This document shows, one piece after another, positions 1-33,032 of a stretch of 64,000 bases of DNA. Below the pieces are notes generated by a model. That model did no database searches. It saw only the letters and a program-made list of their open reading frames with translations, and was not told the DNA's origin. Position numbers and translations under genes: made by a program. Source of the stretch: Candidatus Latescibacterota bacterium. Its GTDB lineage: Bacteria > Latescibacterota > UBA2968 > UBA8231. Where the stretch lies: positions 1,024,001 through 1,088,000 of the forward strand of contig CBDCSU010000005.1 in assembly GCA_965221775.1 (NCBI GenBank). Direction: 5' to 3'. Position 1 is the first letter of the stretch. Each line of letters begins with the position of its first letter.

Positions 1-2432
1 TCGCCCGGGATGGCCTGGAGTCGCCCCGGGATGTCCCGGGCCTCGGTCCCGGGCAGGGGTCTCGACGGATCGGGCGGAACCGCCGTCGGACTCCCCGAAT
101 GGCTCTTTCGGTCAGCAGCGCCAGGCCCGGGAGTAGAGCGATCGCCAGAAACCGTCTGCGGGCGCACCACAACGCTTGTCCGGCCCACAGTAGAGGACCC
201 CCGCCTGGACGGATCTCCCGGGGCCGCCTCTGGCCGCTGGTCCGGAGCCCGCGCATCCAGGCCGGGCCTCGACGGATCTCCCGGGGTCGCCTCTGGCCGC
301 TGGTCCGGACCCCGCGCATCCAGGCCGAGCTCCTCGTGCCGCTCCAGCGCCCGGTCCAGCCGCCGGCGGGCGAGGCCCTCGTCCTCGGCCCGTACCAGGG
401 CGAGAACGTCCACCGAAGTCGTGCGCAGCAGCGCCTTCACGAAAGCCGCCCCGAGAGACCCCGTCGCGCCCGTCACCAGCACGGTCCGCGCCGGAGTCCG
501 GGGTTCGGCGCCAGGGGCTGGAGGAGCGTCGATCTCCAGCTCGGGCGGGGTCCATTTCGACGGCGGTTCCATGCCCTGCTGGTCCCGCAGGCAGCGGGCC
601 AGATCCACAGGAGTCGGGTGCCGGTAGAGGTCGGCGACCGCCACGCGGCGCCCGGTGGCCTGGTGCAGGAGCCCGCAGAGTCGGACCGCCCGGAGGGAGT
701 GGCCGCCGCTGGCCTCGAAGTCGTCCCGCGGGCCGATGGCGGGATCGTCGAGGGCCTGCCGGAAGGCGGCGAGGACCTGCCGCTGCAGAGGATCCGCCTC
801 GGAGCGCGGGTTCGGCGATACGCGAGAGTTCCGTGCCGTCAGGCGCAACCGGCGGCGGTCGACTTTCCCCGAGGGCAGGAGCGGCAGCTCGTCGACCGGG
901 ATGAAGCGGGCCGGCGCGGCCTGTGGCGGCAGCCGGGAAGCGACGTAGGGGCGCAGCTCGCGGTCGAGGTCCGCGGCCTCCGCGCCCTCCGGCCCCGGGA
1001 CGACGTAGGCCTCCAGCTCCGTCTCCCCCCGGTGGCCGGTCTCCGCCGTGACGCAGGCCCGGCGGACCAGCGGGTGTTCCTCCACGACCTGCTCGATGCG
1101 GGCGGGCTCCACCCACGAGCCGCGGATCTTGAGGCCGCTGTCGCAGCGCCCCAGGATCTCCAGCTCGCCGCCGGGGTGGAGCACCCCCAGGTCGCCGGTG
1201 TCGAAGACGCGCGCCGGGCGGAAGCTCCCGTCGGCCGCCGGCAGGTCCACCTCGAGAAAGCCGTCGCCCTCTTCCCCGCCGGAACCGTGACAGGCGCGGG
1301 CCAGGGCGCCGCCGCCCACCAGGATCCGTCCCGGGCTGCCCACGGGCACGAGGCGGGAGGGATCGTCCGGCTCGCAGAGGTGGACCTCGGCGAAGTCCGC
1401 CACCACGCCGCAGGTGATCTCCTTCCCCGGCCGCAACTCGCCCCCGGCGACATCGTGGCACTCCGCCGTCGAGTAGAGATTGCCGATCCGCACCGCCGGC
1501 AGCTCCTTCCAAGCGCGCTCCACGATGGCCGGCGCGGCGATCTCGCCGCACAGGACCAGCAGACGCAGGCGCCGCAGGGCCTCCACCCCTTCCCCGCAGT
1601 CGAGACAGGCTCCCAGCAGACTCGGCGTCATCATGATCCGCGTGATCCCGAAGCGCACGATGGCCGAGGCCAGGGCGAAGAGGTCCCGCATGGTCTCGTC
1701 GCGGACCAGCACTACCGGGACGCCACGGCACAGGGCCGGCACCACGTCCCAGATCCCGAAGATGTTGCAGCCCACCACGTCCCTCGCCGCGTCGAAGGGC
1801 CAGAGCCGGCCGCGCCAGGCGTGGGAGAGCATGGACCCCGCATGATCGGTGGCCACCATCCTGGGGATGCCCGTGCGGGTGCCGGAGGTGAAGGCGAGGT
1901 GCGCCGTGCGCCGCGGGTCGGGATCCGGGAAGACGGCGCCTGCGCTGTCAGGCAGCGGGTCCGCCTCGTCCTCGATCCAGATCCGGGGTACCCCTTCCGC
2001 CAGTGAACAGGGCAGGTCCGCGGCGATGCGCCGCGAGGTGACCAGCGCACCGAGGGGCGCCAGCCCCGGCACCTGCTCCGGGAGCACCCGCCGACCCGGC
2101 TGCAGCGGCACGTAGGGGAGGCCCGCCTTCAGGCAGGCGAAGTAGGTGATCACCCTGCCGGCGTCGTTCTCCAGCAGGACGCCGACACCCGGCTGCCCCG
2201 GGCGACCCTGGCAACGCTTCAGCAGGGCTACGGCAAGGGCGTCGACGGCGGAGCGTAGTTCCGCATAGGTCAAGTACCCGCTCTCGTCGACGAGGATGGC
2301 CCTGTCGGGGGTCCGGCCGGCCTGCCGCTCGAAGGCGGAGTGGATGCAGTCAGCGGCGGCGCTCGCCTCGGTGCGCGACGGGCGGATGTCCTGGTACCAG
2401 GGGAGGGCGGTGCTGGAGAGGGGCGGGGGCAT
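1..2432 (-). CDS. NRPS-like A-T-R protein (adenylation + carrier + thioester reductase), 3' end runs off the window
   Basis: Manual translation from ATG at 2432 (not in the ORF track because there is no stop in the window). Motifs: A1 LTYAEL, A3 AFTSGTRTGIPR, A7 FDTGDLG, A8 GRCDSGLKIRG, A10 SGKVDR, carrier GGHSL, reductase VLVTGATGSLG. Confidence 0.9.
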   Translation of the reverse strand, partial: MPPPLSSTALPWYQDIRPSRTEASAAADCIHSAFERQAGRTPDRAILVDESGYLTYAELRSAVDALAVALLKRCQGRPGQPGVGVLLENDAGRVITYFACLKAGLPYVPLQPGRRVLPEQVPGLAPLGALVTSRRIAADLPCSLAEGVPRIWIEDEADPLPDSAGAVFPDPDPRRTAHLAFTSGTRTGIPRMVATDHAGSMLSHAWRGRLWPFDAARDVVGCNIFGIWDVVPALCRGVPVVLVRDETMRDLFALASAIVRFGITRIMMTPSLLGACLDCGEGVEALRRLRLLVLCGEIAAPAIVERAWKELPAVRIGNLYSTAECHDVAGGELRPGKEITCGVVADFAEVHLCEPDDPSRLVPVGSPGRILVGGGALARACHGSGGEEGDGFLEVDLPAADGSFRPARVFDTGDLGVLHPGGELEILGRCDSGLKIRGSWVEPARIEQVVEEHPLVRRACVTAETGHRGETELEAYVVPGPEGAEAADLDRELRPYVASRLPPQAAPARFIPVDELPLLPSGKVDRRRLRLTARNSRVSPNPRSEADPLQRQVLAAFRQALDDPAIGPRDDFEASGGHSLRAVRLCGLLHQATGRRVAVADLYRHPTPVDLARCLRDQQGMEPPSKWTPPELEIDAPPAPGAEPRTPARTVLVTGATGSLGAAFVKALLRTTSVDVLALVRAEDEGLARRRLDRALERHEELGLDARGPDQRPEATPGDPSRPGLDARAPDQRPEAAPGDPSRRGSSTVGRTSVVVRPQTVSGDRSTPGPGAADRKSHSGSPTAVPPDPSRPLPGTEARDIPGRLQAIPG
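208..333. repeat. Tandem 63-bp in-frame repeat (2 copies) within the reductase domain
   Basis: 208-270 and 271-333 are near-identical and encode GLDARxPDQRPEAxPGDPSR twice. Confidence 0.9.
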
Positions 2433-2478: not shown

Positions 2479-2805
2479 TCAGGCCTGCAAGAGGCGCCGC
2501 TGCAGCAACGTCTGCATGTCACGCCGCCCATCGGCGATCACGAGGACATGGACGTTCTCTTCCATCACCCGGTAGATGATGCGGTAGGGCCTGGAATGGA
2601 CCTCGCGGTATTCCCGGACCCCGACGTCCAGCAGTTCCCTCGGGTGATTGCCGCGCTCGGGATACTCGGAAAGACGGCCGAAAGCCTTCTCGATCTGCTC
2701 CAGCACATGATTCGCCCGACCCGGCGAGTCATGCCGATCGATGTAGTCGCAGATCTCCTCCAGGTCGTGCGCCGCGTCATCGGTCAAGTGGACCAGGAAA
2801 GACAT
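2479..2805 (-). CDS. ParE/RelE family type II toxin
   Basis: MSFLVHLTDDAAHDLEEICDYI...YRIIYRV...DGRRDMQTLL; start overlaps the antitoxin stop (TGATG). Confidence 0.9.
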   Translation of the reverse strand: MSFLVHLTDDAAHDLEEICDYIDRHDSPGRANHVLEQIEKAFGRLSEYPERGNHPRELLDVGVREYREVHSRPYRIIYRVMEENVHVLVIADGRRDMQTLLQRRLLQA

Positions 2806-3080
2806 CACCCGGCCTGTCGCTGCTCCCGGAGTCGAGCGATCACGTCGGCGGCCGGCTGCACCTGACCCGCTTCGATCTGGCGGTTCCCCAGCGCGAGGAT
2901 CTTGAGCAACGCCACGGTCTCCTGCATCCGCTCGTAGCTGTCGATGTCCTGCACCACCACCTTGGCTTCGCCACTCTGGGTGATGATCAGGGGTTCCTGC
3001 TGCTCCCCGAGGGTTCGCACGATCTCGGCAGCGTGCGCCTTGAGGTAACTGATCGGCTTGATCTGACTGGACAGCTTCAT
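2805..3080 (-). CDS. Phd/YefM family antitoxin
   Basis: IKPISYLKAHAAEIVR...PLIITQSGEAKVVVQ; AAGGAGG RBS upstream. Confidence 0.92.
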   Translation of the reverse strand: MKLSSQIKPISYLKAHAAEIVRTLGEQQEPLIITQSGEAKVVVQDIDSYERMQETVALLKILALGNRQIEAGQVQPAADVIARLREQRQAG

Positions 3081-3281: not shown

Positions 3282-3668
3282 CTGCACCTGACCCTGGACC
3301 CCTCCAGCGGGGTCCCCATCTACCTGCAGGTCATCGAGCAGGTCAAGTACCAGATCGCCACCCGGGTGCTCCGGCCGCACGACGAGCTCCCGTCGGTGCG
3401 CGCCCTGGCCGGGCAGTACCTGATCAACCCGAACACGGTGGCGCGGGCCTACCGCGAGCTGGAACACGGCGGGCTCATCTACAAGAAGCGGGGCATGGGC
3501 ACCTACGTGGCCGAGAGGAAGGTGACCATGAGCCGGAAGGAACGGTTCGCGATCGTGCGGCAACTGCTCGACAAGGCCCTGGTGCAGGCCGTCGAGCTGG
3601 GGATGAGCCCCGCGGAGATGCGCCAGGTCTTCCGTGAGCAACTGCACCAGTTCGGTGAAGAGAGATGA
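3282..3668 (+). CDS. GntR family (YtrA subfamily) transcriptional regulator
   Basis: LDPSSGVPIYLQVIEQVK...LPSVRALA...INPNTVARAYRELE. Family-like sequence extends upstream of the GTG at 3366 and the true start is uncertain (CTG 3282 or ATC 3279). Confidence 0.88.
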   Translation: MHLTLDPSSGVPIYLQVIEQVKYQIATRVLRPHDELPSVRALAGQYLINPNTVARAYRELEHGGLIYKKRGMGTYVAERKVTMSRKERFAIVRQLLDKALVQAVELGMSPAEMRQVFREQLHQFGEER

Positions 3669-4555
3669 CTGATGCCGCCATCGCCATGGATGGCCTGACC
3701 CACCGGTTCGGAAAGACCGCCGCCCTGGAGGATCTCGACCTCGAGGTTCCCACCGGAGCGGTCTGCGGCTTCTTGGGGCGCAACGGGGCCGGAAAGACCA
3801 CGGCCATCAGAATCCTGATGAACCAGCTCCGCCCAACGGCCGGACGGACGGAAGTGCTGGGACTGGACCCGGCGCGGGATTCGCTGGCGCTGCGGCGCCA
3901 GGTGGGGTACGTCTCCGAGAGTCCGGTCATGTACGGGTGGATGAAGGTGCGCGAGCTGGCCTGGTTCGCCGGGCAGTTCTACGACACCTGGGATTCGGCA
4001 AAGGTCGCGGGCATGATCGAACGCTTCGGCCTCGATCCGGAGCAGAAGGTCAAGCACCTCTCCCGCGGCATGAACGCCCAGCTCGCCCTCGCCCTGGCCC
4101 TGGGACACGACCCTCGCCTGCTGATCCTCGACGAGCCCGCCTCCGGGCTGGACGTGGTGGTCCGTCGCGACTTCCTGGAGGGCATCATCGGCCTCATCCA
4201 GGAGGAGGGGCGGACCGTCTTCATGTCGTCCCACCTGGTGCACGAAGTGGAACGCGTGGCCGACCGGGTCGCCATCATCGAGCGAGGCCGCCTGGTCGCC
4301 GAGGGGCCGGTGGACGAGGTGAAGGGCTCGGTCAAGCGTGTGTCGGTCCGCCTGCCGGAGGACGCGGGGCCATTGACCGGGATCCCCGGACTGGGGGAGG
4401 TGCGCGGAACGGGGGCGCACCAGCTGTTGACGGTGGTGGGCTACGGCGAGGAACAGGCCGCCCGCATCCAGGCCCAGGGCGGACGCATCGTCGAGGTGGA
4501 GGACCTGGGGCTGGAGGAGGCTTTCCTGGCCTACGCAAGGGCAGGTGGAGGATGA
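3665..4555 (+). CDS. ABC transporter ATP-binding protein (ABC-2/YtrB-like)
   Basis: Walker A GRNGAGKTT, signature LSRGM, Walker B LLILDEP. Confidence 0.95.
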   Translation: MTDAAIAMDGLTHRFGKTAALEDLDLEVPTGAVCGFLGRNGAGKTTAIRILMNQLRPTAGRTEVLGLDPARDSLALRRQVGYVSESPVMYGWMKVRELAWFAGQFYDTWDSAKVAGMIERFGLDPEQKVKHLSRGMNAQLALALALGHDPRLLILDEPASGLDVVVRRDFLEGIIGLIQEEGRTVFMSSHLVHEVERVADRVAIIERGRLVAEGPVDEVKGSVKRVSVRLPEDAGPLTGIPGLGEVRGTGAHQLLTVVGYGEEQAARIQAQGGRIVEVEDLGLEEAFLAYARAGGG

Positions 4556-6603
4556 GGGCCATGAGTCCGATAGGTGCTCTTCTGTGGAAGGAAGGACGGG
4601 CGGCAGCTGGCAGGGTAGCCGCCGTTGCCGGCCTGGCCCTGCTTGTCGGACTGGCCCATACCGACAGCGACTTCTCCCCCCAGGCGGGAGCCCAACTGGT
4701 AGGCGTCCTCGCCGCCCTTCTGATGAGCATGGACCTGGTGGCGGGTGAACGCAGCCGCGGGACCCTGCCCTTCCTGTCGAATCTGCCGGTGAGGACGGCC
4801 TGGGTGCTGGGGGGCAAGTACGCAGTCGGCGCCGCGGGGCTCCTTGTCGTTCTGGCCGCGTACTGGGCCGGGGTCTACCTCGGGATGTCCTACTGGGGGG
4901 ATTGGAGCCGTGGGCATCCCCTGCGACACCCACTCGCAAGGGAAGTCTTCACGGAGGTCGGGTACGGCCGGATTCTGTTGCTCTGGTTCCTGTTCTACCT
5001 GATCCCGTACTCGGGTGCGTTCCTCTCGTCCACATTGAGCAACCGCCCCCTCCAAGCCGCCGGGACCGGCTTGCTGACAGCTTTCGTCGGGGGGTTCCTC
5101 CTCAATCGCGCTAGAGACCTGTCTGATCCAGTGTCCCTTTACTTCGGGCAGATCCTGGAGAATGGCTTCTACGATGGCTTGATCCTGCGGCCGGCCTTCG
5201 ATCCAGCGCTGCTGCTTGCCAGGGCCGCAACGGCACTCCTGCTGGCAGGTTGCGTGGTGGGCTGGTCCTGCCGTGCCTTCCGAGGCCAGGGGAGCCGTCG
5301 CTTCCACTGGATCATGGGTGCCCTGGCCCTGATCTGCCTGATCGTCACGTACGGGTCGCGGTGGGTCCCTCCCGAGCCCGAACCGGCCGAACCTGCGGGC
5401 CGTCTCCCCCATCTTGTGGGCCTGGTTCCCTATCGAGCAGGCATCGTGGAACTGGTGGTGAGAGACAGAATGGCGATGGTGCTGCTGACATCGGGGCTGA
5501 GCATCGTGGACGTGTCGGACTCGCAGGCTCCGAGGGAAGTCGGGCGGGTGGAAATGGAAGGTTGGCGACTGCACAGTCTGGCCGTTTCAGCCTCCGCAGC
5601 GTATGTCTGGGGATGGACTGGGAAACAGGACAGTGCTGGGGTGGCCGTATTCGACCTGAGCCGGCCTGAGCGCCCCCGGCTGCGAGCTCAGCACCTGATC
5701 CATCCCGTCGAGCCGGGCCCCACCCGCTGGCTCAGGCAGACTCCCCGCCTGACGACCTGGACCGTCCGCGAGGGATACCTGTACGCCGGCCTGCTCGCCC
5801 GCGAGTTCCTCGAGCTGCACAGCTTCGACGTACGTGAAGGCGGCCTCCCTCGACCGGTCCAGGTGCTGCGGATCGAAGAGACGGCCAGGCATGTCTGGAA
5901 TGACGACTGGGAGATGCACCTGGAGGGCGAGAACGCCTTCCTGACCCTGGGCCACGACTTCGTGGTCCTCGATCTGACCGACCCCGCGGCCATGGGAGAG
6001 CTGGGCCGGACCTCCCTGCGCCGATTCGGCCGCTCCGCCAGGCAGTATGAAGAGCAGATGGAAGCACTCCACCTCCAGCTGGCTCAACTACAGCGGGCTC
6101 AACTGCCGGTCGAGACTGCCTTTGTGGTGAGAAGCCGTGGAGGGCCAGAGGTACACCTGGAGAACGAGGGTGCCCGCAGCCAGCGCACCCAATGGATTTA
6201 CGTGCCCCAGGCCTTGGGGACCGTCTCCCTGAAAGGAGACAAGGCATACGTCCTTCGCCACTGGCCCCGGGAGCTGGCCGTAATCGACATCGGCGATCCC
6301 CAACGACCGATGGAAGTCGACTACGTCCGGCTTCCACGGTGGATCGCGGAGACATCCTCTGGCCGGGCGTACCAACTGATCCAGGAAGAGACCGTCTCAA
6401 TGTCGATGACCATATCAGGGCGGGATGACGCGGGCCGGGGCTCCGTGCCCCGGACCTGGCTCCAGCTCGGGGGCCAGCGAGGGCAGGGGGAGCCTGTCAC
6501 CCTCAGCTTTCCCAAAGCCGAGGTCTTTCCGGTGGACGACCACCTGTGCACCATCCTGCACAACAACCTTGCCATCTTCGAGATGCCGCCGGCGGAGCCA
6601 TAG
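4552..6603 (+). CDS. ABC-2 type permease fused to a C-terminal LVIVD-repeat domain
   Basis: ATG at 4552 overlaps the ATPase stop. ALLWKE...AGERSRGTLPFL...KY permease pattern with several TM segments, then GLSIVDVSD, VAVFDLSRP, FVVLDLTDP, LAVIDIGDP repeats. Confidence 0.8.
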   Translation: MRAMSPIGALLWKEGRAAAGRVAAVAGLALLVGLAHTDSDFSPQAGAQLVGVLAALLMSMDLVAGERSRGTLPFLSNLPVRTAWVLGGKYAVGAAGLLVVLAAYWAGVYLGMSYWGDWSRGHPLRHPLAREVFTEVGYGRILLLWFLFYLIPYSGAFLSSTLSNRPLQAAGTGLLTAFVGGFLLNRARDLSDPVSLYFGQILENGFYDGLILRPAFDPALLLARAATALLLAGCVVGWSCRAFRGQGSRRFHWIMGALALICLIVTYGSRWVPPEPEPAEPAGRLPHLVGLVPYRAGIVELVVRDRMAMVLLTSGLSIVDVSDSQAPREVGRVEMEGWRLHSLAVSASAAYVWGWTGKQDSAGVAVFDLSRPERPRLRAQHLIHPVEPGPTRWLRQTPRLTTWTVREGYLYAGLLAREFLELHSFDVREGGLPRPVQVLRIEETARHVWNDDWEMHLEGENAFLTLGHDFVVLDLTDPAAMGELGRTSLRRFGRSARQYEEQMEALHLQLAQLQRAQLPVETAFVVRSRGGPEVHLENEGARSQRTQWIYVPQALGTVSLKGDKAYVLRHWPRELAVIDIGDPQRPMEVDYVRLPRWIAETSSGRAYQLIQEETVSMSMTISGRDDAGRGSVPRTWLQLGGQRGQGEPVTLSFPKAEVFPVDDHLCTILHNNLAIFEMPPAEP

Positions 6604-6632
6604 GAGCAGAAGGGCAGCCTCCGCGGGTCTCC

Positions 6633-7382
6633 TCAGGGCGTGGGCAGTACCACGGGCGCAGGACTGGTTAAGACCGACTCCGGCAACTCCTCAAAGACAG
6701 CCACACCCGTGTGCCCGCGCTCGCCGCGGCCGTCGGAGAGCAGGATCGATCCATACCGCTGCCAGTTGGTCCAAGGGCCGGTGAAGCGCGGCTCCGCGTC
6801 GGCCGCCTCCCGGTAGAAGGCCCACTGGGTCACCAGCCGTGACTCCTGGTCGATCCAGACGGCGTACTTGTTCTGCGGGGTGACGCCCACGTCCCTGAAG
6901 GTCAGCTCCACCACCTCGGCCGGGCGACCGTCCTCGATGGCCTCCAGTCCCCGGTAGCGCAGGGTGACTCCCGTGTCCTTGAGCTTGTAGGGCATGACCA
7001 GCCAGTACGAGTCGTTGATCCAGGCGCGGTAGCCCTGATCCAGCTTCGCCGCCAGGGTGTCGGGATCGCTGATCTCCACGCCGGCGGAGAAGGCGCGTCC
7101 CTCCTTGCTGTGGATGTTCATCAGCACCGTCAGGTCGTCGTGCTCGAAGCGGATGTCCCCGGTCCACCTGTCCCACACGTGAAGGCGGAAGCCGAAGAAG
7201 CGCCAGCTGATGTAGCGGGTGGCGTCCCAGTTGGCGCGTCCGCCCATGGCGGCCATGACCTCGTCGGCCAGGGCGATCGCCTTCGGGTCGGAACCGGCGG
7301 CGTCGAAGCCGGGGGCGGGAGGATTGTCGGCGGCGTGGGCGACGCCGATCCAGAGCAAGGAGGCGAGGAGTGAGCGCAACAT
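6633..7382 (-). CDS. Conserved secreted hypothetical protein
   Basis: Signal peptide MLRSLLASLLWIGVAHA; AMGG.ANW...WINDSYWLVMPYKL...GVTPQNKY pattern. Confidence 0.75.
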   Translation of the reverse strand: MLRSLLASLLWIGVAHAADNPPAPGFDAAGSDPKAIALADEVMAAMGGRANWDATRYISWRFFGFRLHVWDRWTGDIRFEHDDLTVLMNIHSKEGRAFSAGVEISDPDTLAAKLDQGYRAWINDSYWLVMPYKLKDTGVTLRYRGLEAIEDGRPAEVVELTFRDVGVTPQNKYAVWIDQESRLVTQWAFYREAADAEPRFTGPWTNWQRYGSILLSDGRGERGHTGVAVFEELPESVLTSPAPVVLPTP

Positions 7383-7432
7383 GAAGACTCCTTCGGCTGT
7401 GGTGATCTGGGTACGTGTCCGGTCGCGCAGAG

Positions 7433-8191
7433 TCAGTCGCGCGTGGCGCTCTGCGCGGGCGATAACAGTCCTTCCACCAGGGCGGGAACCCGCGGCCTGG
7501 TGCCTTGCGCCTGAAGATGCTCCGCCCATGCCTCGAGGTAGCTCTCGAACGTCTCATTTGCGGTCACATCCCAGCCGTTCAGCCAGCCACAGTCGCGCCA
7601 AAGCGAAGTGTCCTCGAGAAACCGACCCAGCAGGGCGACGGCCAGGGTTCCGTTGAGCTCGCGGATGAATGGGTCCTCTTCCAGTCTGCCCAGATTGCCT
7701 GCCAGCCAGGATCGGAGATCGCCCTCCCCGGGTTGTTCATACCCCTGCGCGATCTCCTCGGCGTACGTCTTGAAGTTCGGTGCGAACCCCTCTGCCTGGA
7801 AAACGCGAGGGGGCGGACGTTCCCTCCAGCGATCCGCAAGCCGATGCAGCACGAACAGCGACGCCAGCTCGCACAAGCTCTCTTCGAACCAGTTGTGCTT
7901 GTGTTCCCTGTGGCGGTCGAAATTGGTCATGACATGGCACAGCTCGTGCGAGAACTGGTACACGTACTGGCACCAGTATGTGTCCCGGGCGCTGATTCTC
8001 ATCTGGTAAGGTCTGCAGCCGTAGAAAACTCGAGGCGCCTCGTTCCACCAGGTGACCTGAATTGGGGCATCCGGAGGCCTGCCGAAGGCCTGGACGAGCA
8101 CCTCGTACGCGGACTCCAGGACCGCCTGAACGGCAGAGAGGCTCGCACCTCCCCAGTTGCCGTTCTCTATCGGCAGTCGTTCCTGTTCCAT
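7433..8191 (-). CDS. Hypothetical protein with HEXXH zinc-metallopeptidase motif
   Basis: YQFSHELCH...WFEESLCELAS; ATG at 8191 overlaps the stop of the upstream ATPase. Confidence 0.75.
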   Translation of the reverse strand: MEQERLPIENGNWGGASLSAVQAVLESAYEVLVQAFGRPPDAPIQVTWWNEAPRVFYGCRPYQMRISARDTYWCQYVYQFSHELCHVMTNFDRHREHKHNWFEESLCELASLFVLHRLADRWRERPPPRVFQAEGFAPNFKTYAEEIAQGYEQPGEGDLRSWLAGNLGRLEEDPFIRELNGTLAVALLGRFLEDTSLWRDCGWLNGWDVTANETFESYLEAWAEHLQAQGTRPRVPALVEGLLSPAQSATRD

Positions 8192-9756
8192 CACTCGGCC
8201 CCGCTGACCTTGGGGGATGCCGACCGCGCACCGTGGGGACCGCGTTCGCGCGGACCCAGCATGCTCCGAAAGTCGATCATGTCGTGGCAGACATAGTCCC
8301 CGGCTTCCAGATCGGCCCGCTGTTCGGGAGAGAACTGCACCGAATAGAGGGCGAACTCGCGGCGCCACCGCCGGAACCGGCTTCCGGGCTCCGACCCGAG
8401 AAACAGATCCACCTGCTCGCGGAAGTTGCCGACCGCCTGTGCATCGTGCCTTGCCGCATTCCGCTTGCACGAGCCGAAACGGACGACTCGATCCTCCTCG
8501 TTCCATGCGATGAGGTCGATATCCACCGACACGTTGGTCCGCCGCGGCCGGTTCCAGTAGCCTCTGACGCGATCCGAAACGGGGAAGTCGACACCCGCCC
8601 GTGACGCCGCCTCGGTCGCCTCCCGCACCATTCGTTCGAAGGCGAAGCCTTCAAGTGTCCTCAGTCGCGCAGTCAGACGCTTCGCCACTCTGGATACCGG
8701 CTCGATTCGGGCGGCCTGGCAGGCGGGGTGAATGACGCTCAGCCATGCGAGTAGAAACGGGTCTGAAACAGCGTACCGGGCACGGCGCCGTCGTTCTCCG
8801 AAGATGGGGTCCTGTCTCTCCACCAGCCGAAGTTCCTGTCCGAGGGTTTTGAGGTACGGTCCCAGGGAGAGCTCAGGCGCGGATTCCTGCAGTTCGGCAT
8901 GAGTGCAAGGCCCTCGCTCTGCGATCACGCGAAGGAGCGCGACATAGTGGCGGCGCAACTCCCGGCCCGGCAGACCCTCGCCCTCCTCGCGCAACGGCGA
9001 GTCGGAACGAAGGAACAGCCGCTCGCACACCTGCTGCGCCCAGGCTTCCCACTCGGGGATTCCGTGGAGATCGGCGCCCTGCTCGGCGTAGTGGCGCCAG
9101 TACTTCGGCACCCCGCCAAAGAGGGCCCACAAGGTCAGGCACCGCGCGGGGTCGGCTGCACCCTGTTCGCGGCAAACCTCGAACACCGTGGCCAGATCCC
9201 AGGGATCGAGGCAGATGTCGAAGGTCGTGCGCCCGAACAACGGCGCCCGCCGATCATTGAGCAGATCCTCCATCTCCGTCTGCACAGAGCCCAGGAGGAT
9301 CAGTCCACCGGCCGTGGCCAGGTCCTGGAGCCTGTCGGCCTCAGCCTGAAGCAAGGAGGGCAGCCCGCGGAGCGGACCGCCGTGGCAGGTCTGGAACTCG
9401 TCCAGAATGACCACCACGCCGGCCGAACAGAGGGAGCCCACGGCCCTGGCCACTCCTGGAAGACCTGGGGCCGCGCTCGACTCGTCCAGGTGGCCTTCGA
9501 GTCCGGCTTCCTGCACGGCGTTCCGGAACACGGTGGCCAGGTCCGCGGGGGTGCTGTCCGGAAACTGGACCAGAAGGCAGGGGACTCCGTCGGGCTCATC
9601 CTCCTCGAGGATCCTCAGGGCCTGCTGGACGAGGGCGGTCTTTCCGACCCTGCGACGGCCCCGGATGGTTCCGAAGAACCATCTCGGCTGGCGCAGCCGG
9701 GCCAGCAGACTGCCCAGCTCGTCGGTGCGTCCGTAGAAGGTCCATGACGTGGCCAC
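8191..9756 (-). CDS. AAA/archaeal-type ATPase with wHTH and C-terminal DUF234/PD-(D/E)XK-like domain
   Basis: FYGR..EL, Walker A GRRRVGKT, Walker B VILDEFQ, GGVPKY, C-terminal DIDLIA...GSCK. Confidence 0.88.
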   Translation of the reverse strand: MATSWTFYGRTDELGSLLARLRQPRWFFGTIRGRRRVGKTALVQQALRILEEDEPDGVPCLLVQFPDSTPADLATVFRNAVQEAGLEGHLDESSAAPGLPGVARAVGSLCSAGVVVILDEFQTCHGGPLRGLPSLLQAEADRLQDLATAGGLILLGSVQTEMEDLLNDRRAPLFGRTTFDICLDPWDLATVFEVCREQGAADPARCLTLWALFGGVPKYWRHYAEQGADLHGIPEWEAWAQQVCERLFLRSDSPLREEGEGLPGRELRRHYVALLRVIAERGPCTHAELQESAPELSLGPYLKTLGQELRLVERQDPIFGERRRRARYAVSDPFLLAWLSVIHPACQAARIEPVSRVAKRLTARLRTLEGFAFERMVREATEAASRAGVDFPVSDRVRGYWNRPRRTNVSVDIDLIAWNEEDRVVRFGSCKRNAARHDAQAVGNFREQVDLFLGSEPGSRFRRWRREFALYSVQFSPEQRADLEAGDYVCHDMIDFRSMLGPRERGPHGARSASPKVSGAE

Positions 9757-10293: not shown

Positions 10294-12636
10294 ATGGAGG
10301 CAACTGAGGGCCGCGGGGCCGAGAGGGCGTCCCCTCTCCGCGCCAGCGTGCCGCCGCGGGTCCGGCGCGAGTTGGCCGAATTCGTCGCTCCCGGCGAAGA
10401 GCTCCGTCTCGCCGTAACCACGGACATCCGCCTCGACGGCCGCTACGGCGAGGCCTGGCTGATGGCCACCGACGACCTGCTGGTGGCCTTCAGCCCCGAC
10501 AGCGGCGGACCGCCCGACCTGGTCTGCCTGCCCCTGGCCGAGATCCGGGGGGTGGAGGTCCGCGAGGACCTGGGGACGGCGGCCCTCAAGGTCCGCACCG
10601 GCGAGCGGGGCTCGACCATGGCGGTGTTCTCCAAGAGCCTGGTGCCGGCCCTGTCGGAGCTGCCCGAGCAGGTCGAGCGCCTGGTCAGGCAGGCCCGCTC
10701 GGAAGATTCCGACGGCCAGGTGCTCCACGGGCGGCTGGCCGGGGCCCGTGCCGGGCGCCAGCGCTGCGACCGCTGCGGCCAAGTCATCCCGCGCCGCTAC
10801 GGGGTATGCCCGGCCTGCCTGGAGAAGGGCAAGCTCCTCTTCCGGCTGCTGGGCTATGCCAGGCCGCACTGGCGGCTCATCGCCTTCAGCCTGTCCCTCA
10901 TGGTGGCGGCCACGGTCATCGGCTTGAGCCCGCCGCTGCTGCAGAGGGTGCTCATCGACGATGTCCTCAACGTCGACGCGCCTTCCTCCACGGCCCTCGA
11001 TGACCGCTTCGATCTGCTGGCTCTGCTGCCGGTCTCCAACGACGACCAGCTGTCGGCGCTGGCCTGGCTGGTGGGCCTGCTGACAGCCATCCACCTCACC
11101 GTCAGCGTCCTGTCGGCCCTGCGCGGCTACATCATGGCCCGCATCGGCCAGCGCGTCACCTACGGTCTGCGCAACGAGCTGTACTCCCATCTCCACGCGC
11201 TCTCCCTCAGTTACTACACCCGCAACGAGACCGGGCGCATCATGGCCAGCGTCACCCACGACGTGGGCCGCCTGCAGGACTTCATCAGCGACGGACTGCA
11301 GGAAGCGATCCGCGATGTGCTCACCCTGGCCATCATCTGCATCATCCTGTTCTGGCTCAATCCCGGGCTGGCGGCCCTGGTGCTCCTGCCGACGCCCCTG
11401 CTGGTGTGGGCGACGCTGCGCTTCGGCCGCAAGCTGCACGCCATCTACCGGCCCTTGTGGCGCCGCTGGGCCGGCTTGAGCGCCCTCCTCGCCGATACCA
11501 TCCCGGGGGTGCGCGTGGTCAAGGCCTTCGCCCAGGAGCGGCGGGAGGTGGGCAAGTTCAAGGGACGCAGCCTGGACCTGCTGCGGGGCGAGCTGCGGGT
11601 GGCGTGGATGCGCAGCCTCTTCGGCCCGGTCATGACCTTCGTCACCGCCATCGGCACGATCATCATCTGGTGGGTCGGGGGGCGCGACATCCTGGCCGGC
11701 GAGCTGACCCTGGGCGACTTCGTCGCCTTCACCATGTACATGTACCGCTTCTACGGGCCGGTGGAGAGCCTGTGCCGCCTCAACCACCGCTTCCAGCACG
11801 CCGCCACCTCCGCCGAGCGCGTCTTCGACGTCCTCGACACGCACCCGGAGATCATCGACCCGGCCGACGCCGCGGCCATGCCGCCCATCGAGGGCCGCGT
11901 CGAGTTCCGCGGCGTCCACTTCGGCTACGAGGAGGAGAAGCCCGTCCTCGAGGACCTGAGCTTCACCGTCGAGCCGGGCGAGATGATCGGCCTCGCCGGC
12001 CACAGCGGCGCCGGCAAGAGCACCCTCATCAACCTCATCTGCCGTTTCTACGAGCCCCAGGAAGGGGCGATCCTCATCGACGGCCGCGACACCCGCGGGG
12101 TGAACCTGCGATCGCTGCGCGAGCAGATCGGCGTGGTCCTGCAGGACCCCTTCCTCTTCAACGGCACGGTGGCCGACAATGTCGCCTACGGCCATCCCGG
12201 GGCCTCCCTCGAGGAGATCGTGGCCGCCGCCAAGGCCGCCAATGCCCACGACTTCGTCATGGACATGCCCGACGGGTACGACACCATGGTCGGCGAGCGC
12301 GGCCTCCGCGTCTCCGGGGGCGAGCGCCAGCGGCTGTCCATCGCCCGCGCGATCCTGCGGGACCCGCGCATCCTCATCCTCGACGAGGCGACATCCAACG
12401 TCGACACCCAGACCGAGTCGCAGATCCAGGAGGCCCTGGAGCGCCTGGTCCGGGGACGGACGACCTTTGCCATCGCCCATCGCCTGTCGACCCTGAAGAA
12501 CGCCCACCGGCTGCTCATCCTGGAGAAGGGCCGGCTCGCCGAGATCGGCACCCACGACGAGCTGACCGCGCGCGACGGCATCTACGCGAACCTGTGCCGC
12601 ATGCAGGCCGAGATGTCCCGGCTGAGGGCCTGGTAG
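10294..12636 (+). CDS. ABC exporter, fused permease/ATPase with N-terminal extension and Zn ribbon
   Basis: CDRC..CPAC, TM domain, GHSGAGKST, VSGGERQR, ILILDEATS. Confidence 0.93.
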   Translation: MEATEGRGAERASPLRASVPPRVRRELAEFVAPGEELRLAVTTDIRLDGRYGEAWLMATDDLLVAFSPDSGGPPDLVCLPLAEIRGVEVREDLGTAALKVRTGERGSTMAVFSKSLVPALSELPEQVERLVRQARSEDSDGQVLHGRLAGARAGRQRCDRCGQVIPRRYGVCPACLEKGKLLFRLLGYARPHWRLIAFSLSLMVAATVIGLSPPLLQRVLIDDVLNVDAPSSTALDDRFDLLALLPVSNDDQLSALAWLVGLLTAIHLTVSVLSALRGYIMARIGQRVTYGLRNELYSHLHALSLSYYTRNETGRIMASVTHDVGRLQDFISDGLQEAIRDVLTLAIICIILFWLNPGLAALVLLPTPLLVWATLRFGRKLHAIYRPLWRRWAGLSALLADTIPGVRVVKAFAQERREVGKFKGRSLDLLRGELRVAWMRSLFGPVMTFVTAIGTIIIWWVGGRDILAGELTLGDFVAFTMYMYRFYGPVESLCRLNHRFQHAATSAERVFDVLDTHPEIIDPADAAAMPPIEGRVEFRGVHFGYEEEKPVLEDLSFTVEPGEMIGLAGHSGAGKSTLINLICRFYEPQEGAILIDGRDTRGVNLRSLREQIGVVLQDPFLFNGTVADNVAYGHPGASLEEIVAAAKAANAHDFVMDMPDGYDTMVGERGLRVSGGERQRLSIARAILRDPRILILDEATSNVDTQTESQIQEALERLVRGRTTFAIAHRLSTLKNAHRLLILEKGRLAEIGTHDELTARDGIYANLCRMQAEMSRLRAW

Positions 12637-30552: not shown

Positions 30553-32049
30553 TCACCGGTACTGGTCCATGGCGCCCCGGCGATGGTCGAAGGCCGGGTC
30601 GTGGCTCCAGGTATGGCCGTGCCGCTTCATGGTGTCCCTGATGAGCCGCCTGCGGTAGAGGCTGGCCAGGTTCTCCCGCGCCATGGCGTCCGGGTCGAAC
30701 CGGTCGAGGATATGGCCCCGAAGGCTCTCTGCCACCTGGCGGTGCGTGCCTTCGGCGGCGAGATCGTGCCACTCGCCCGGATCGTTCTCCAGGTCGAAGA
30801 GAGCAGGTTCGAAACCGTGAATGTGGAGGTACTTGTACCGCCCCTGCCGCGCCATGATGCACGGCATGCCCACCGCCTCGTGGGCCTGGGCGAAGACGAC
30901 GCGGTCGGCGTCGTTCCCGGCGGTCGGTGACAGGAGGCTGCGGCCGTCGTGGGGCAGGCGATCCTCGACCCCCGCGAGATCGCAGAACGTCGGCAGAAGG
31001 TCGATCAGTGAAACAGGGTGGGGACTGGTCGTACCCGCGCGCCAGCCGTCCGGATAGCGGACGATCAGGGGCACTCGGCAGGACCACTCGTAGAAACACC
31101 GCTTCTGCACCATGCCCCGCTCGCAGAGCATGTCGCCGTGGTCACTGGCGAAGACCACCACCGTGCTCTCCGCCAGTCCGGTCTCGTCGAGGGCGTCCAG
31201 CAGGCCGCCGACCTTGTCGTCCATGTAGCTCACCAGGCCGTAGTAGGCCCGCCGGAGCCGGTAGAGGCCTTCCTCGTCCCGCAGGTCGTACCGCCCCGTG
31301 CCGTGATAGGCGTTCAGGTTCCGGTCCATCATGGTGTAGTGATCGTCCAGATCCGCGGGAAAGGAAGGCAGGTCGATCTCGGCGTCTTCGTACCGGTTCC
31401 AGTAGTCCAGGGGCGGCCAGAAGGGTTCGTGGGGGTGGTGGTAGGACGCGCAGAGCAGGAAAGGAGCGTCACCTTCATCCTGCTCTCGGGCCCGCAGGTA
31501 CTCGACGGCCCGGAAGTGGGTCTCCTCGTCGTAGCTCAGGGCGTTGTGCCACACCCCGATCCGCACCCCGTCCCCGGTGTAGCCTCTCGCATTGTACATG
31601 GACCGGTTGCTCATCACCTCTTCGCAGTCCCGTCCCCCGGTCTCCTTGAGGCGGATCCACTCCGGCTTCACCCAGTTGAAGTCGGAGGAGTAGATGTCCG
31701 TGGTCAGACGCCTCCGGAATCCGTGCAGCTGGTCCGGGCCGATGAAGTGCATCTTGCCGGAGAGCACGGTATCGTAGCCCGCATCGGACAGGTAATGGGC
31801 GAAGGTCGGCTGGTCCGCCGCCAGCAGCGCGCCGTTGTCCCAGGCCCCGATCTCGGAGGCGTGCCGTCCCGTCATCAGGCATGCGCGGCCCGGTGCGCAG
31901 AGGGGAAAGGCGGTGTACGCCGCGTCGTAGCGCACGCCCTCCTCCACCAGCCTGTCCAGGTGGGGCGTCCGCACGACGGGATGGCCGTACGCCCCGGTCA
32001 GTGCGGCGACCATCTGGTCCGAAAGGACGAGCAGTATGTTGGGTCTCAC
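30553..32049 (-). CDS. betC: Choline-sulfatase-like sulfatase
   Basis: PNILLVLSDQ, LCAPGR (formylglycine motif), GKMHFIGPDQLHGF, SDHGDML; GTG start overlaps the aldo/keto reductase stop; substrate is inferred. Confidence 0.75.
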   Translation of the reverse strand: MRPNILLVLSDQMVAALTGAYGHPVVRTPHLDRLVEEGVRYDAAYTAFPLCAPGRACLMTGRHASEIGAWDNGALLAADQPTFAHYLSDAGYDTVLSGKMHFIGPDQLHGFRRRLTTDIYSSDFNWVKPEWIRLKETGGRDCEEVMSNRSMYNARGYTGDGVRIGVWHNALSYDEETHFRAVEYLRAREQDEGDAPFLLCASYHHPHEPFWPPLDYWNRYEDAEIDLPSFPADLDDHYTMMDRNLNAYHGTGRYDLRDEEGLYRLRRAYYGLVSYMDDKVGGLLDALDETGLAESTVVVFASDHGDMLCERGMVQKRCFYEWSCRVPLIVRYPDGWRAGTTSPHPVSLIDLLPTFCDLAGVEDRLPHDGRSLLSPTAGNDADRVVFAQAHEAVGMPCIMARQGRYKYLHIHGFEPALFDLENDPGEWHDLAAEGTHRQVAESLRGHILDRFDPDAMARENLASLYRRRLIRDTMKRHGHTWSHDPAFDHRRGAMDQYR

Positions 32050-33032
32050 GTTGCTCTCCCCTTGAACAGGTCGTCGTCGCGGTCGGTAGCCGGCGGCGGC
32101 GCGATCGACAGCGCCGACACCTCCTCGCGCATCTCGTCCGACATGGCGAAGTCGAGGGCGGCGAGGGACGGCTTGAGCTGATCCAGATCGCGCCCGCCGA
32201 CGATCGGCGCCGTCACGTCGGGATGCCCCATGGCCCACGCGACAGCCAGGGTCACCGGATGCACGCCCCGGTCGCCGGCATAGCGCACGAAGCGCTCGGC
32301 GACTTCGTAGAACACGGGGTTGGCGTAGCGCTTCATGTAGTTGTCCAGTTCCAGGAGACGACCCCGCGCCGGCCGCTTGTCGACTCCGTACTTGCCGGTC
32401 AGCAAGCCGCCCCCGAGGGGACTGTAGGTGATCACGCCCAGGCCCTCCGAGCGGGCCAGCGGCAGGACTTCCACCTCCACTTGCCGCTTGACCAGGCTGT
32501 ACATGGGCTGAATGCAGGCGAAGGAGGCCAGCCCCTCGCGGGCGCAGTGGCCAAGGGCCTTGGCGATCTGCCAGGCGGCCCAGTTGCTCACCGCCGGGTA
32601 GAGGATCTTGCCGCCGCGCACCAGGTCGTCGAGGGCGGCGAGGGCTTCCTCCATCGGCGTGTCTTCGTCGAAGTTGTGAACGAAGTACAGGTCGAGGCGG
32701 TCCGTCTGCAGCCGCCGGAGACTGGCCTCTACGGCCTGCACGATATGCCGACGCGACAGGCCCCGGTCGTTGGGGCCGTCACCGATCGCATTGCAGACCT
32801 TCGAAGTGATGACCAGCTCATCGCGCTCGCCCTGGATCAAGCGCCCCAGGATCTCCTCGGCGAGCCCCCTGGAATAGTTGTTGGCCGAGTCGAAGAAGTT
32901 GATCCCCAGGTCGCGGCAGTAGCGGTACATCTGCCCGGAGGCCGCCTCGTCCGCATCGCCGCCAAAGGCCATGGTTCCACAGCACAGGCGGGACACCTTG
33001 ACCCCCGTGCGGCCCAGAATCCTGTACTGCAT
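32046..33032 (-). CDS. Aldo/keto reductase
   Basis: LGRTGVKVSRL..GTM, FFDSANNY, SLRRLQTDRLDLY, YSPLGGGLLTGKY. Confidence 0.95.
   Translation of the reverse strand: MQYRILGRTGVKVSRLCCGTMAFGGDADEAASGQMYRYCRDLGINFFDSANNYSRGLAEEILGRLIQGERDELVITSKVCNAIGDGPNDRGLSRRHIVQAVEASLRRLQTDRLDLYFVHNFDEDTPMEEALAALDDLVRGGKILYPAVSNWAAWQIAKALGHCAREGLASFACIQPMYSLVKRQVEVEVLPLARSEGLGVITYSPLGGGLLTGKYGVDKRPARGRLLELDNYMKRYANPVFYEVAERFVRYAGDRGVHPVTLAVAWAMGHPDVTAPIVGGRDLDQLKPSLAALDFAMSDEMREEVSALSIAPPPATDRDDDLFKGRAT

Follow-up and report, generated by a model that had tools for sequence, protein, structure and literature searches.

A 64,000-nucleotide stretch of DNA from Candidatus Latescibacterota bacterium (assembly GCA_965221775.1, contig CBDCSU010000005.1; G000:C5:1024001-1088000), hereafter called the window, carries at its left edge, on the minus strand, a gene for a stand-alone carboxylate reductase that resembles nonribosomal peptide synthetases (NRPSs) and is intact as judged by its conserved catalytic motifs. 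The encoded protein consists of an adenylation (A), a thiolation or carrier (T) and a thioester-reductase (R) domain. It belongs to a rare and undescribed protein family, which we named FGWD for its invariant F-G-x-W-D motif. By sequence, ATRR-type adenylation domains are the closest relatives found for it, although the family lies outside ATRR proper. ATRR is the fungal glycine betaine reductase (Aspergillus nidulans AN5318; Hai, Huang & Tang 2019), and it likewise combines an NRPS-type A domain that lacks Asp235 with a downstream carrier and thioester reductase. We consider it reasonably likely that the FGWD enzyme of the window reduces a positively charged carboxylate that is larger than glycine betaine.

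Domain architecture of the A-T-R protein

Inside the window, an open frame of 843 amino acids runs on the minus strand from position 2531 to the left edge, where its 3' end is open. By extending the gene leftward in its own contig (L005), the full open reading frame (ORF) was located at L005:14085-17531(-); it comprises 1148 amino acids and ends in a stop codon. Translation probably starts at Met34 (window 2432), yielding 1115 amino acids, because the N-termini of the homologues align at this residue and the database copy P0002 has the same length. The initial annotation, whose end coordinate of 2432 coincides with this start, had described a minus-strand ORF with adenylation, carrier and reductase domains and without a condensation domain. 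All of these were found by ORF and Pfam analysis, which is far beyond chance, and every string quoted there (GCNIFGIWDVVPALCRG, RIMMTPSLL, LCGE, NLYSTAECHDV, GGHSL and GATGSLG) is present in the 843-residue frame. The parts of the gene are listed below; model confidence is given as the predicted local distance difference test (pLDDT).

1..2432 (-): A-T-R gene, part inside the window (ORF lists, translation)
L005:14085-17432/17531, equal to window -915 to 2432 (to 2531 if the upstream ATG is the start) (-): A-T-R gene, whole
837..2354 (-): adenylation domain, residues 60-565, core motifs through the A10 lysine K556 (Pfam, alignment A1, pLDDT mostly 70-93)
588..779 (-): carrier (thiolation) domain, residues 585-648 (Pfam PP-binding)
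696-698 (-): codon of the phosphopantetheine serine S612 in GGHSL (invariant in A1)
321..488 (-): thioester-reductase domain, N-terminal part (residues 682-737), including the nucleotide-binding loop GATGSLG (Pfam NAD_binding_4, pLDDT ~90)
1..26 (-): reductase domain resumes, from residue 836 (translation)
L005:14085-15000 (-): remaining reductase domain with S909-S911, Y945, K949, the C-terminal subdomain and the stop codon (translation, invariant residues, PDB matches, pLDDT 85-93)

A Pfam scan of residues 1-843 identified AMP-binding (67-412, E 2.6e-39), AMP-binding_C (479-556), PP-binding (585-648, E 2.8e-11) and the first 75 of the 258 profile positions of NAD_binding_4 (686-758), and no condensation domain. 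Past the scanned part, residues 835-1077 match thioester reductases in the PDB. Thus, a single chain combines the A domain, a carrier with its serine and an R domain with the nucleotide loop and a Tyr-Lys pair. Across the 14 aligned members of alignment A1, T445-G446-D447, K468 and K556 of the A domain, G688, A689, G691 and G694 of the nucleotide loop as well as Y945 and K949 are invariant. The AlphaFold2 model computed from this alignment has a mean pLDDT of 74.1 and a predicted template modelling score of 0.74, and disorder is limited to an insert in the reductase domain and to the termini. The genome also holds three ACPS-family phosphopantetheinyl transferase matches over cut-off, and an enzyme for loading the carrier appears to be available.

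The extension of the contig did not uncover the second reductase of the short-chain dehydrogenase/reductase (SDR) type for which the initial annotation had suggested looking, as the ORF terminates after one R domain. No NCBIfam model scored over its cut-off for the A-T-R protein, the top matches being NRPS models, and the Lys2/alpha-aminoadipate reductase equivalog TIGR03443 was not reached (88 bits against a cut-off of 1030.1). In the PDB search, bacterial carboxylic acid reductases (CARs; e.g. PDB 5msc) match the protein via the R domain only (residues 837-1004, E 2.1e-16), whereas NRPS A domains match it up to E 4.9e-74; the A domain is of the NRPS amino-acid type and not of the CAR type. 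The best solved matches to residues 835-1077 are MxaA (4u7w, E 6.8e-29), a polyketide synthase (PKS) reductase (8v1x, E 5.1e-28) and Mycobacterium Nrp (4dqv, E 2.7e-18), which have the SDR fold and the Tyr-Lys pair in common with the window protein. However, these domains terminate multi-module lines, whereas the R domain of the window protein follows a single loading module and contains a disordered insert of 98 residues.

Relationship to ATRR-type adenylation domains

The pocket region of the protein (residues 200-400) was compared with 1.84 billion representative proteins using HMMER. With this query, multi-module NRPSs score high through summed domain scores. The best single-domain matches outside the family include P0210, P0212 and P0250 (104-110 bits, 38-39% identity), which have the architecture A-T-R1-R2 with a C-terminal adh_short domain according to Pfam. 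A word-indexed search with residues 205-375 returned the family, four weak NRPS matches and no ATRR; the absence of ATRR stems from the word index, since ATRR-type proteins did appear in the full HMMER scan. A profile of the three proteins recovers 3848 proteins, and the matches listed (120 of 3848) include a protein that NCBI names 'glycine betaine reductase ATRR-like [Haliotis rufescens]' and proteins from the nematodes Heterodera and Bursaphelenchus, a diatom and a labyrinthulomycete; no fungal protein is among these 120. ATRR has animal, nematode and protist homologues, and the ATRR-type domains are the nearest relatives that were found outside the FGWD family.

The ATRR-type proteins read CNVFFVWE...TPSLL...LCGE...NLYS[VI]SE[CT]HD, and the window protein reads CNIFGIWD...TPSLL...LCGE...NLYSTAECHD. 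The likeness to ATRR that had been pointed out in the initial annotation was essentially right, since CN.F..W[DE], TPSLL, LCGE and NLYS..ECHD are common to both; written more loosely, the shared motifs are CN[VI]F..W[DE] and NLYS..E[CT]HD. Scored with the hidden Markov model (HMM) of the family A domain, ATRR-type domains reach 349-390 bits compared with 325.5 bits for the best NRPS domain. Residue counts were made for three groups, namely the family (domains scoring >400 bits on the family HMM, n = 77), the ATRR-type domains (n = 112) and other A domains (n = 566). Position 354 is occupied by Ser in 77/77 family and 111/112 ATRR-type domains and by Gly in 551/566 of the others. E357 and D360 are each present in 77/77 and 112/112 domains of the first two groups, which also share His359. 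The rare states Ser354, His359 and Asp360, being common to both groups, back the kinship of the family with ATRR.

Phylogenetic analysis points in the same direction. An unrooted tree was built from 67 chosen A domains (18 bacterial and 8 eukaryotic family members, 14 ATRR-type domains, three further domains carrying the motif and 24 from NRPSs, among them those with the highest scores). With branch support from the Shimodaira-Hasegawa-like approximate likelihood ratio test (SH-aLRT), the tree falls into three blocks: the family (99; its bacterial members form a single clade, also at 99), the ATRR-type domains (99) and all 24 NRPS domains (100). For a second tree of 52 rows, 47 of the A domains (20 were dropped) were rooted with five proteins of the acyl-CoA-ligase type from the same genome. 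Here, the family joins the ATRR-type domains with a support of 92, and the NRPS domains form a group with a support of 96. The trees, built without fungal ATRR, Lys2, CAR or Ebony sequences, represent a part of the phylogeny that had been proposed in the initial annotation, and in them the family lies with the ATRR-type domains and apart from the NRPS A domains. The kinship is favoured, though not proven, by likelihood.

The A domain is not nested inside the ATRR clade, as the ATRR-type domains, together with P0225 and P0246, form one clade (99) and the FGWD family another (99). The protein is not a member of ATRR, because it lacks the R2 domain, differs in two pocket residues and falls into a separate clade. 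While ATRR has two reductases, the window protein has one and lacks the YdfG-like SDR. Moreover, the ATRR motif ends in WE, whereas that of the family ends in WD. Beside the family (SH-aLRT 88) branches P0224, a 2491-residue hybrid synthase with the architecture TE-A-T-KS-AT-KR and the motifs CNIFFAWE and NDYSIAECHD. Because of this architecture and signature, it appears that an ATRR-like A domain also serves as the loading module in a PKS line.

The substrate-binding pocket

Two studies describe the pocket of the A. nidulans enzyme (AnATRR). F201, W204 and W270 form a cation-pi cage, E304 provides the counter-charge, and the enzyme selects strictly by size for glycine betaine (10.1101/559534). 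In addition, F202 stacks on W204, thereby shrinking the pocket (PMC13194791). Residue numbers of AnATRR and PtNRPS1 were taken from the papers, and the mapping was done by FFxW register and spacing, without the fungal sequence. The spacing of 34 residues is constant between W270 and E304 in AnATRR, F285 and E319 in PtNRPS1 of Phaeodactylum tricornutum, W289 and D323 in P0210 and V326 and D360 in the window protein. We infer from this register that F201, F202, W204, W270 and E304 correspond to F258, G259, W261, V326 and D360, respectively. The elements of the pocket are as follows.

1746..1769 (-): A4-region pocket motif CNIFGIWD, residues 255-262, with Ile257 at the position of Asp235 in PheA
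1554..1556 (-): codon of Val326, the putative equivalent of AnATRR Trp270, two residues before CGE (placed by its spacing to the acid)
1452..1481 (-): A5 variant NLYSTAECHD, residues 351-360, with Ser354 in place of the near-universal Gly and Asp360 as the putative equivalent of AnATRR Glu304

As stated in the initial annotation, the Asp of the FD motif is absent; in a gapless register with FDxSxWE domains, Ile257 takes the place of Asp235 in PheA, where ATRR-type proteins hold Val. The canonical NxYGPTE is absent as well, the A5 motif being NLYSTAE. The putative equivalents of F201, W204 and E304 (F258, W261 and D360) are conserved in 77/77 family domains. However, position 259 is Gly in 77/77 family domains compared with Phe in 110/112 ATRR-type domains, and at position 326, 68 of the 77 carry Val and nine carry Thr compared with Trp in 60/112. 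In our reading, the family has kept the counter-charge arrangement of the ATRR clade and has lost the two residues that tighten the ATRR pocket.

Proposed reaction and alternative substrates

The substrate is probably larger than glycine betaine, because the replacement of F202 by Gly and of W270 by Val widens the predicted pocket. Examples of such candidates are pyridinium carboxylates, acids that bear an amine, and other betaine or sulfonium osmolytes. The A domain would adenylate a small cationic carboxylic acid, whose charge would be read by Phe258, Trp261 and Asp360 in place of the usual Asp235. The acyl group would then pass to the phosphopantetheine on Ser612, and the single R domain would use NAD(P)H to release the aldehyde, or the alcohol after a second hydride transfer.

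Several observations weigh against this reading. Release may or may not stop at the aldehyde, and the best R-domain matches in the PDB include MxaA, which makes an alcohol. The pocket mapping depends on the motif register and not on a structure or a fungal ATRR sequence. Phe236 and Trp239 also occur in 429/566 and 339/566 ordinary A domains, respectively, and alone are no mark of a cation cage. The W270 position varies even among the 112 ATRR-type domains (W 60, I 20, V 15, L 7, H 5). His is found in the nematode ATRRs, whose link to glycine betaine consists of yeast tolerance assays only (PMC11050029). On the side of the phylogeny, a tree with the family beside the NRPSs and ATRR outside is not rejected by an approximately unbiased (AU) test (delta lnL 9.39, p 0.196). 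Finally, no neighbour gene is conserved across the three bacterial phyla represented by 19 loci.

The A-domain signature shared with ATRR-type proteins and the equivalents of F201, W204 and E304 that are kept throughout the family would also suit a bacterial glycine betaine reductase. Such an enzyme would form betaine aldehyde, and choline would arise via a separate enzyme or a second hydride transfer by the same R domain. The variability of the W270 position in ATRR-type proteins, including the nematode ATRRs, is compatible with this idea, and the genome encodes one OpuAC-type betaine/choline-binding protein and, 28 kb from the gene, a choline-sulfatase equivalog. However, it has to be weighed against the missing R2 domain, the Gly at the F202 position in all 77 domains and the Val or Thr at the W270 position. 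As AnATRR is strictly size-selective (10.1101/559534), a wider pocket favours another substrate. Moreover, the genome, which is 96.8% complete, contains no BCCT transporter and no betA or betB match over cut-off, and no betaine or choline gene is among the conserved neighbours. Altogether, we regard glycine betaine as an improbable substrate.

Some stand-alone A-T-R enzymes of bacteria are known to make amino aldehydes. A reductase of amino acids or aryl acids comparable to PtNRPS1 or the fungal HqlA, whose amino aldehyde or alcohol would serve as a signal or building block, for instance for pyrazines, is an alternative that we consider unlikely. The wider pocket with Gly259 and Val326 would accommodate a bulky side chain. 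PtNRPS1, an A-T-R1-R2 protein of the ATRR-type A-domain group without Asp235, is reported to convert tryptophan to tryptophanol and to act also on salicylates; its pocket is described as wider than that of AnATRR, and it reportedly binds tryptophan via Glu319, the counterpart of Asp360 (PMC13194791). However, this assignment comes from a single study, in which docking and binding assays were combined with the detection of products (PMC13194791). Unlike the FGWD proteins, PtNRPS1 has two reductases, Phe at the W270 position and an intact FF pair. It falls into the stramenopile branch of the ATRR-type clade, as judged via its diatom relative P0270 and not by its own sequence, and the FGWD family forms a clade separate from the diatom sequences. 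Furthermore, no tailoring or cluster genes lie beside the gene in any of the 19 loci. Given the reported use of tryptophan by PtNRPS1, an ATRR-type enzyme of a diatom (PMC13194791), neither glycine betaine nor a substrate without an alpha-amino group can be predicted from membership in the clade. The proposal of a betaine or non-alpha-amino carboxylate in the initial annotation is thus unsupported by clade membership, and the pocket residues differ.

The insert in the reductase domain

The Pfam NAD_binding_4 match stops at residue 758, and reductase sequence picks up at about residue 836 (GDLSKPLMGL). The interruption is caused by an insert that includes a tandem duplication.

27..320 (-): low-complexity insert of ~98 residues (738-835), before the strand leading into GDLSKPLMGL (pLDDT <50, no secondary structure)
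203-327, equal to L005:15203-15328 (no strand assigned): 63-bp tandem duplication, 2.0 copies, 94-95% identical (Tandem Repeats Finder, repeat families D1 and D3)

A third, degenerate partial copy of the 63-bp unit is located at L005:15057-15084. When translated, the copies yield a repeat of a PGDPSRP-like peptide, which is similar to the native GDLSKP segment just downstream. Because of this resemblance, the insert may have grown by local slippage. The region is absent or different in homologues, and the closest ones, P0008 and P0013, carry inserts of other sequence at the same spot.

The break of the Pfam match after profile position 75 and the high identity between the two copies, which marks the duplication as recent, would fit a decaying gene whose reductase domain has been inactivated and whose protein is non-functional. 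We consider this very improbable: the frame stays open over 1148 codons with a third-position G+C of 0.89, the insert preserves the reading frame and appears in the model as a disordered loop between well-folded parts with a pLDDT of ~90 on both sides, the closest homologues tolerate different inserts at this place, and all catalytic residues are present. The pseudogene reading was dropped on account of the open frame, the in-frame insert and the conserved catalytic residues. Judging from sequence and model, the insert is a tolerated variable loop and not a break.

The FGWD family and its distribution

A search of 5.8 billion proteins yielded 167 matches, of which 67 (P0002-P0068) have E values of 1.1e-140 or lower; the next match is an ordinary NRPS at 1.3e-72. 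Few members are named, and these are 'AMP-binding protein' entries from a Gemmatimonadetes metagenome-assembled genome (MAG), Lentimonas, Pelagicoccus and Opitutaceae. Across 185,579 species of prokaryotes, each represented by one genome, 18 loci were found. They belong to four Latescibacterota MAGs (60-78% identity), five Opitutaceae/Pelagicoccus and nine Gammaproteobacteria/Pseudomonadales. In its own phylum, the gene is present in 8/168 genomes including that of the window, all of them from one family, and in the same genus it occurs in one of nine other genomes. Thus, the FGWD gene is accessory and patchily distributed.

The family also extends to eukaryotes. The A-T-R proteins P0080, P0088, P0100, P0150, P0152, P0161, P0164 and P0214 carry the family motifs and have no match in the prokaryote genomes. 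Whole-length Pfam analysis of the eukaryotic members P0150, P0152, P0161, P0164 and P0214 revealed a single reductase and no adh_short domain. A metagenome scan returned nothing with P0080 as the query and two contigs with alignment A3. One of the contigs, L042 (12.7 kb, 65.7% G+C; features at 6277-9510 and 10881-12350), contains an intact A-T-R homologue of 1078 residues with the motifs FGIWD and NLYSLSETHD, which are the same as those of P0161. A RabGAP-TBC gene adjoins this ORF, and an NMT1/THI5-like gene on the contig is divided between two frames in an intron-like manner. The RabGAP-TBC family is specific to eukaryotes. This neighbour and the apparent intron point to a G+C-rich eukaryote as the host of L042. 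Searches of open-access papers found no description of a bacterial relative of ATRR. Because the bacterial sequences form one clade that adjoins the eukaryotic ones, the tree suggests a transfer between the domains of life.

Genomic neighbourhood

Conserved neighbours of the gene are confined to single lineages, and the fungal study likewise describes atrr as lacking a conserved neighbourhood (10.1101/559534). In the Opitutaceae, 4/4 loci (L010-L013; checked with Pfam in three) have a gene for a sodium:solute symporter (SSF) immediately upstream in the same orientation. In one gammaproteobacterial subclade (L014, L015 and L021), a gene for a PnuC-family transporter of the nicotinamide-riboside type lies directly downstream on the same strand in 3/3 loci that reach past the gene. 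The same subclade has a cardiolipin-synthase-like phospholipase D gene upstream on the opposite strand. The adjoining SSF and PnuC transporters possibly represent an uptake link. In L013, a sulfatase gene immediately follows the A-T-R gene, and in L019 and L022 a gene pair for an extracytoplasmic function (ECF) sigma factor and a DUF3379 protein precedes it. The features around the gene in the contig of the window are the following.

2479-2808 (-): ParE toxin gene, directly upstream of the A-T-R gene (PF05016, E 2.6e-18)
2805-3080 (-): Phd-family antitoxin gene, overlapping the ParE gene (TIGR01552)
L005:12802-13935 (-): ankyrin-repeat protein of 377 amino acids, directly downstream of the A-T-R gene
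30553-32238 (-): choline-sulfatase equivalog, BetC-like (449 bits, cut-off 433)

Only in the closest relative, L009, does an orthologue of the ankyrin-repeat gene (87.5% identity) follow the A-T-R gene; L007 and L008 have ankyrin genes with a different sequence about 3 kb upstream. Beyond the ankyrin gene lies a gene of the cytidine/deoxycytidylate-type deaminase family (dCMP_cyt_deam_1). The BetC-like sulfatase, which had been regarded as only suggestive in the initial annotation, is real, and none of the other sulfatase matches in the genome (30 in all) exceeds the choline-sulfatase cut-off. As evidence for linkage to the A-T-R gene it was rejected, given its distance of 28 kb, its status as one of 30 matches and the lack of betA and betB matches over cut-off. 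An aldo-keto reductase gene (window 32046-33032, minus strand) is located directly upstream of the sulfatase gene on the same strand. Elsewhere in the window, positions 3366-4555 (plus strand) encode a small GntR-type regulator and an ABC ATPase, for which the best NCBIfam matches, to PmtR and PmtA-like export, lie well below cut-off. Window 10294-12636 encodes an ABC exporter of 780 amino acids, and its best match is the model for a cyanophycin-associated ABC transporter (657 against 880 bits).

Biological significance

The discovery of ATRR showed that the oxidation of choline to glycine betaine can run backwards, and in that report the enzyme is called exclusive to eukaryotes (10.1101/559534), whereas FGWD proteins occur in bacteria. 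In a marine study, the pathway in marine microbes is called unexplored, and atrr-like transcripts are described as mostly eukaryotic, deriving from Dinophyceae, Stramenopiles, Haptophyta and Amoebozoa (PMC9321204). The FGWD proteins represent a discrete and rare bacterial family that combines the unusual adenylation signature of ATRR with a wider predicted pocket and one reductase. The natural pair of pocket changes, Phe to Gly and Trp to Val, is useful for studying how substrate size is set in the ATRR/FGWD clade. Moreover, the single bacterial clade beside eukaryotic sequences raises the possibility of a transfer between domains.

A more speculative history, which we put forward as doubtful, would have the FGWD family arise in eukaryotes as a sister of ATRR, pass once from marine algae to bacteria and spread among Latescibacterota, Opitutaceae and Gammaproteobacteria. 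It would give feeders on algal detritus a reductive route for a cationic algal osmolyte that ATRR cannot take, such as dimethylsulfoniopropionate (DMSP), a larger betaine or an N-methylpyridinium carboxylate, imported via the adjacent SSF or PnuC-type transporters. If the substrate were an ordinary amino acid, the finding would reduce to one more NRPS-like reductase. If, however, the algal-osmolyte reading were true, the enzyme would provide a new entry point into marine osmolyte turnover. The FGWD family is a testable candidate for the bacterial reductive metabolism of betaine-like osmolytes.

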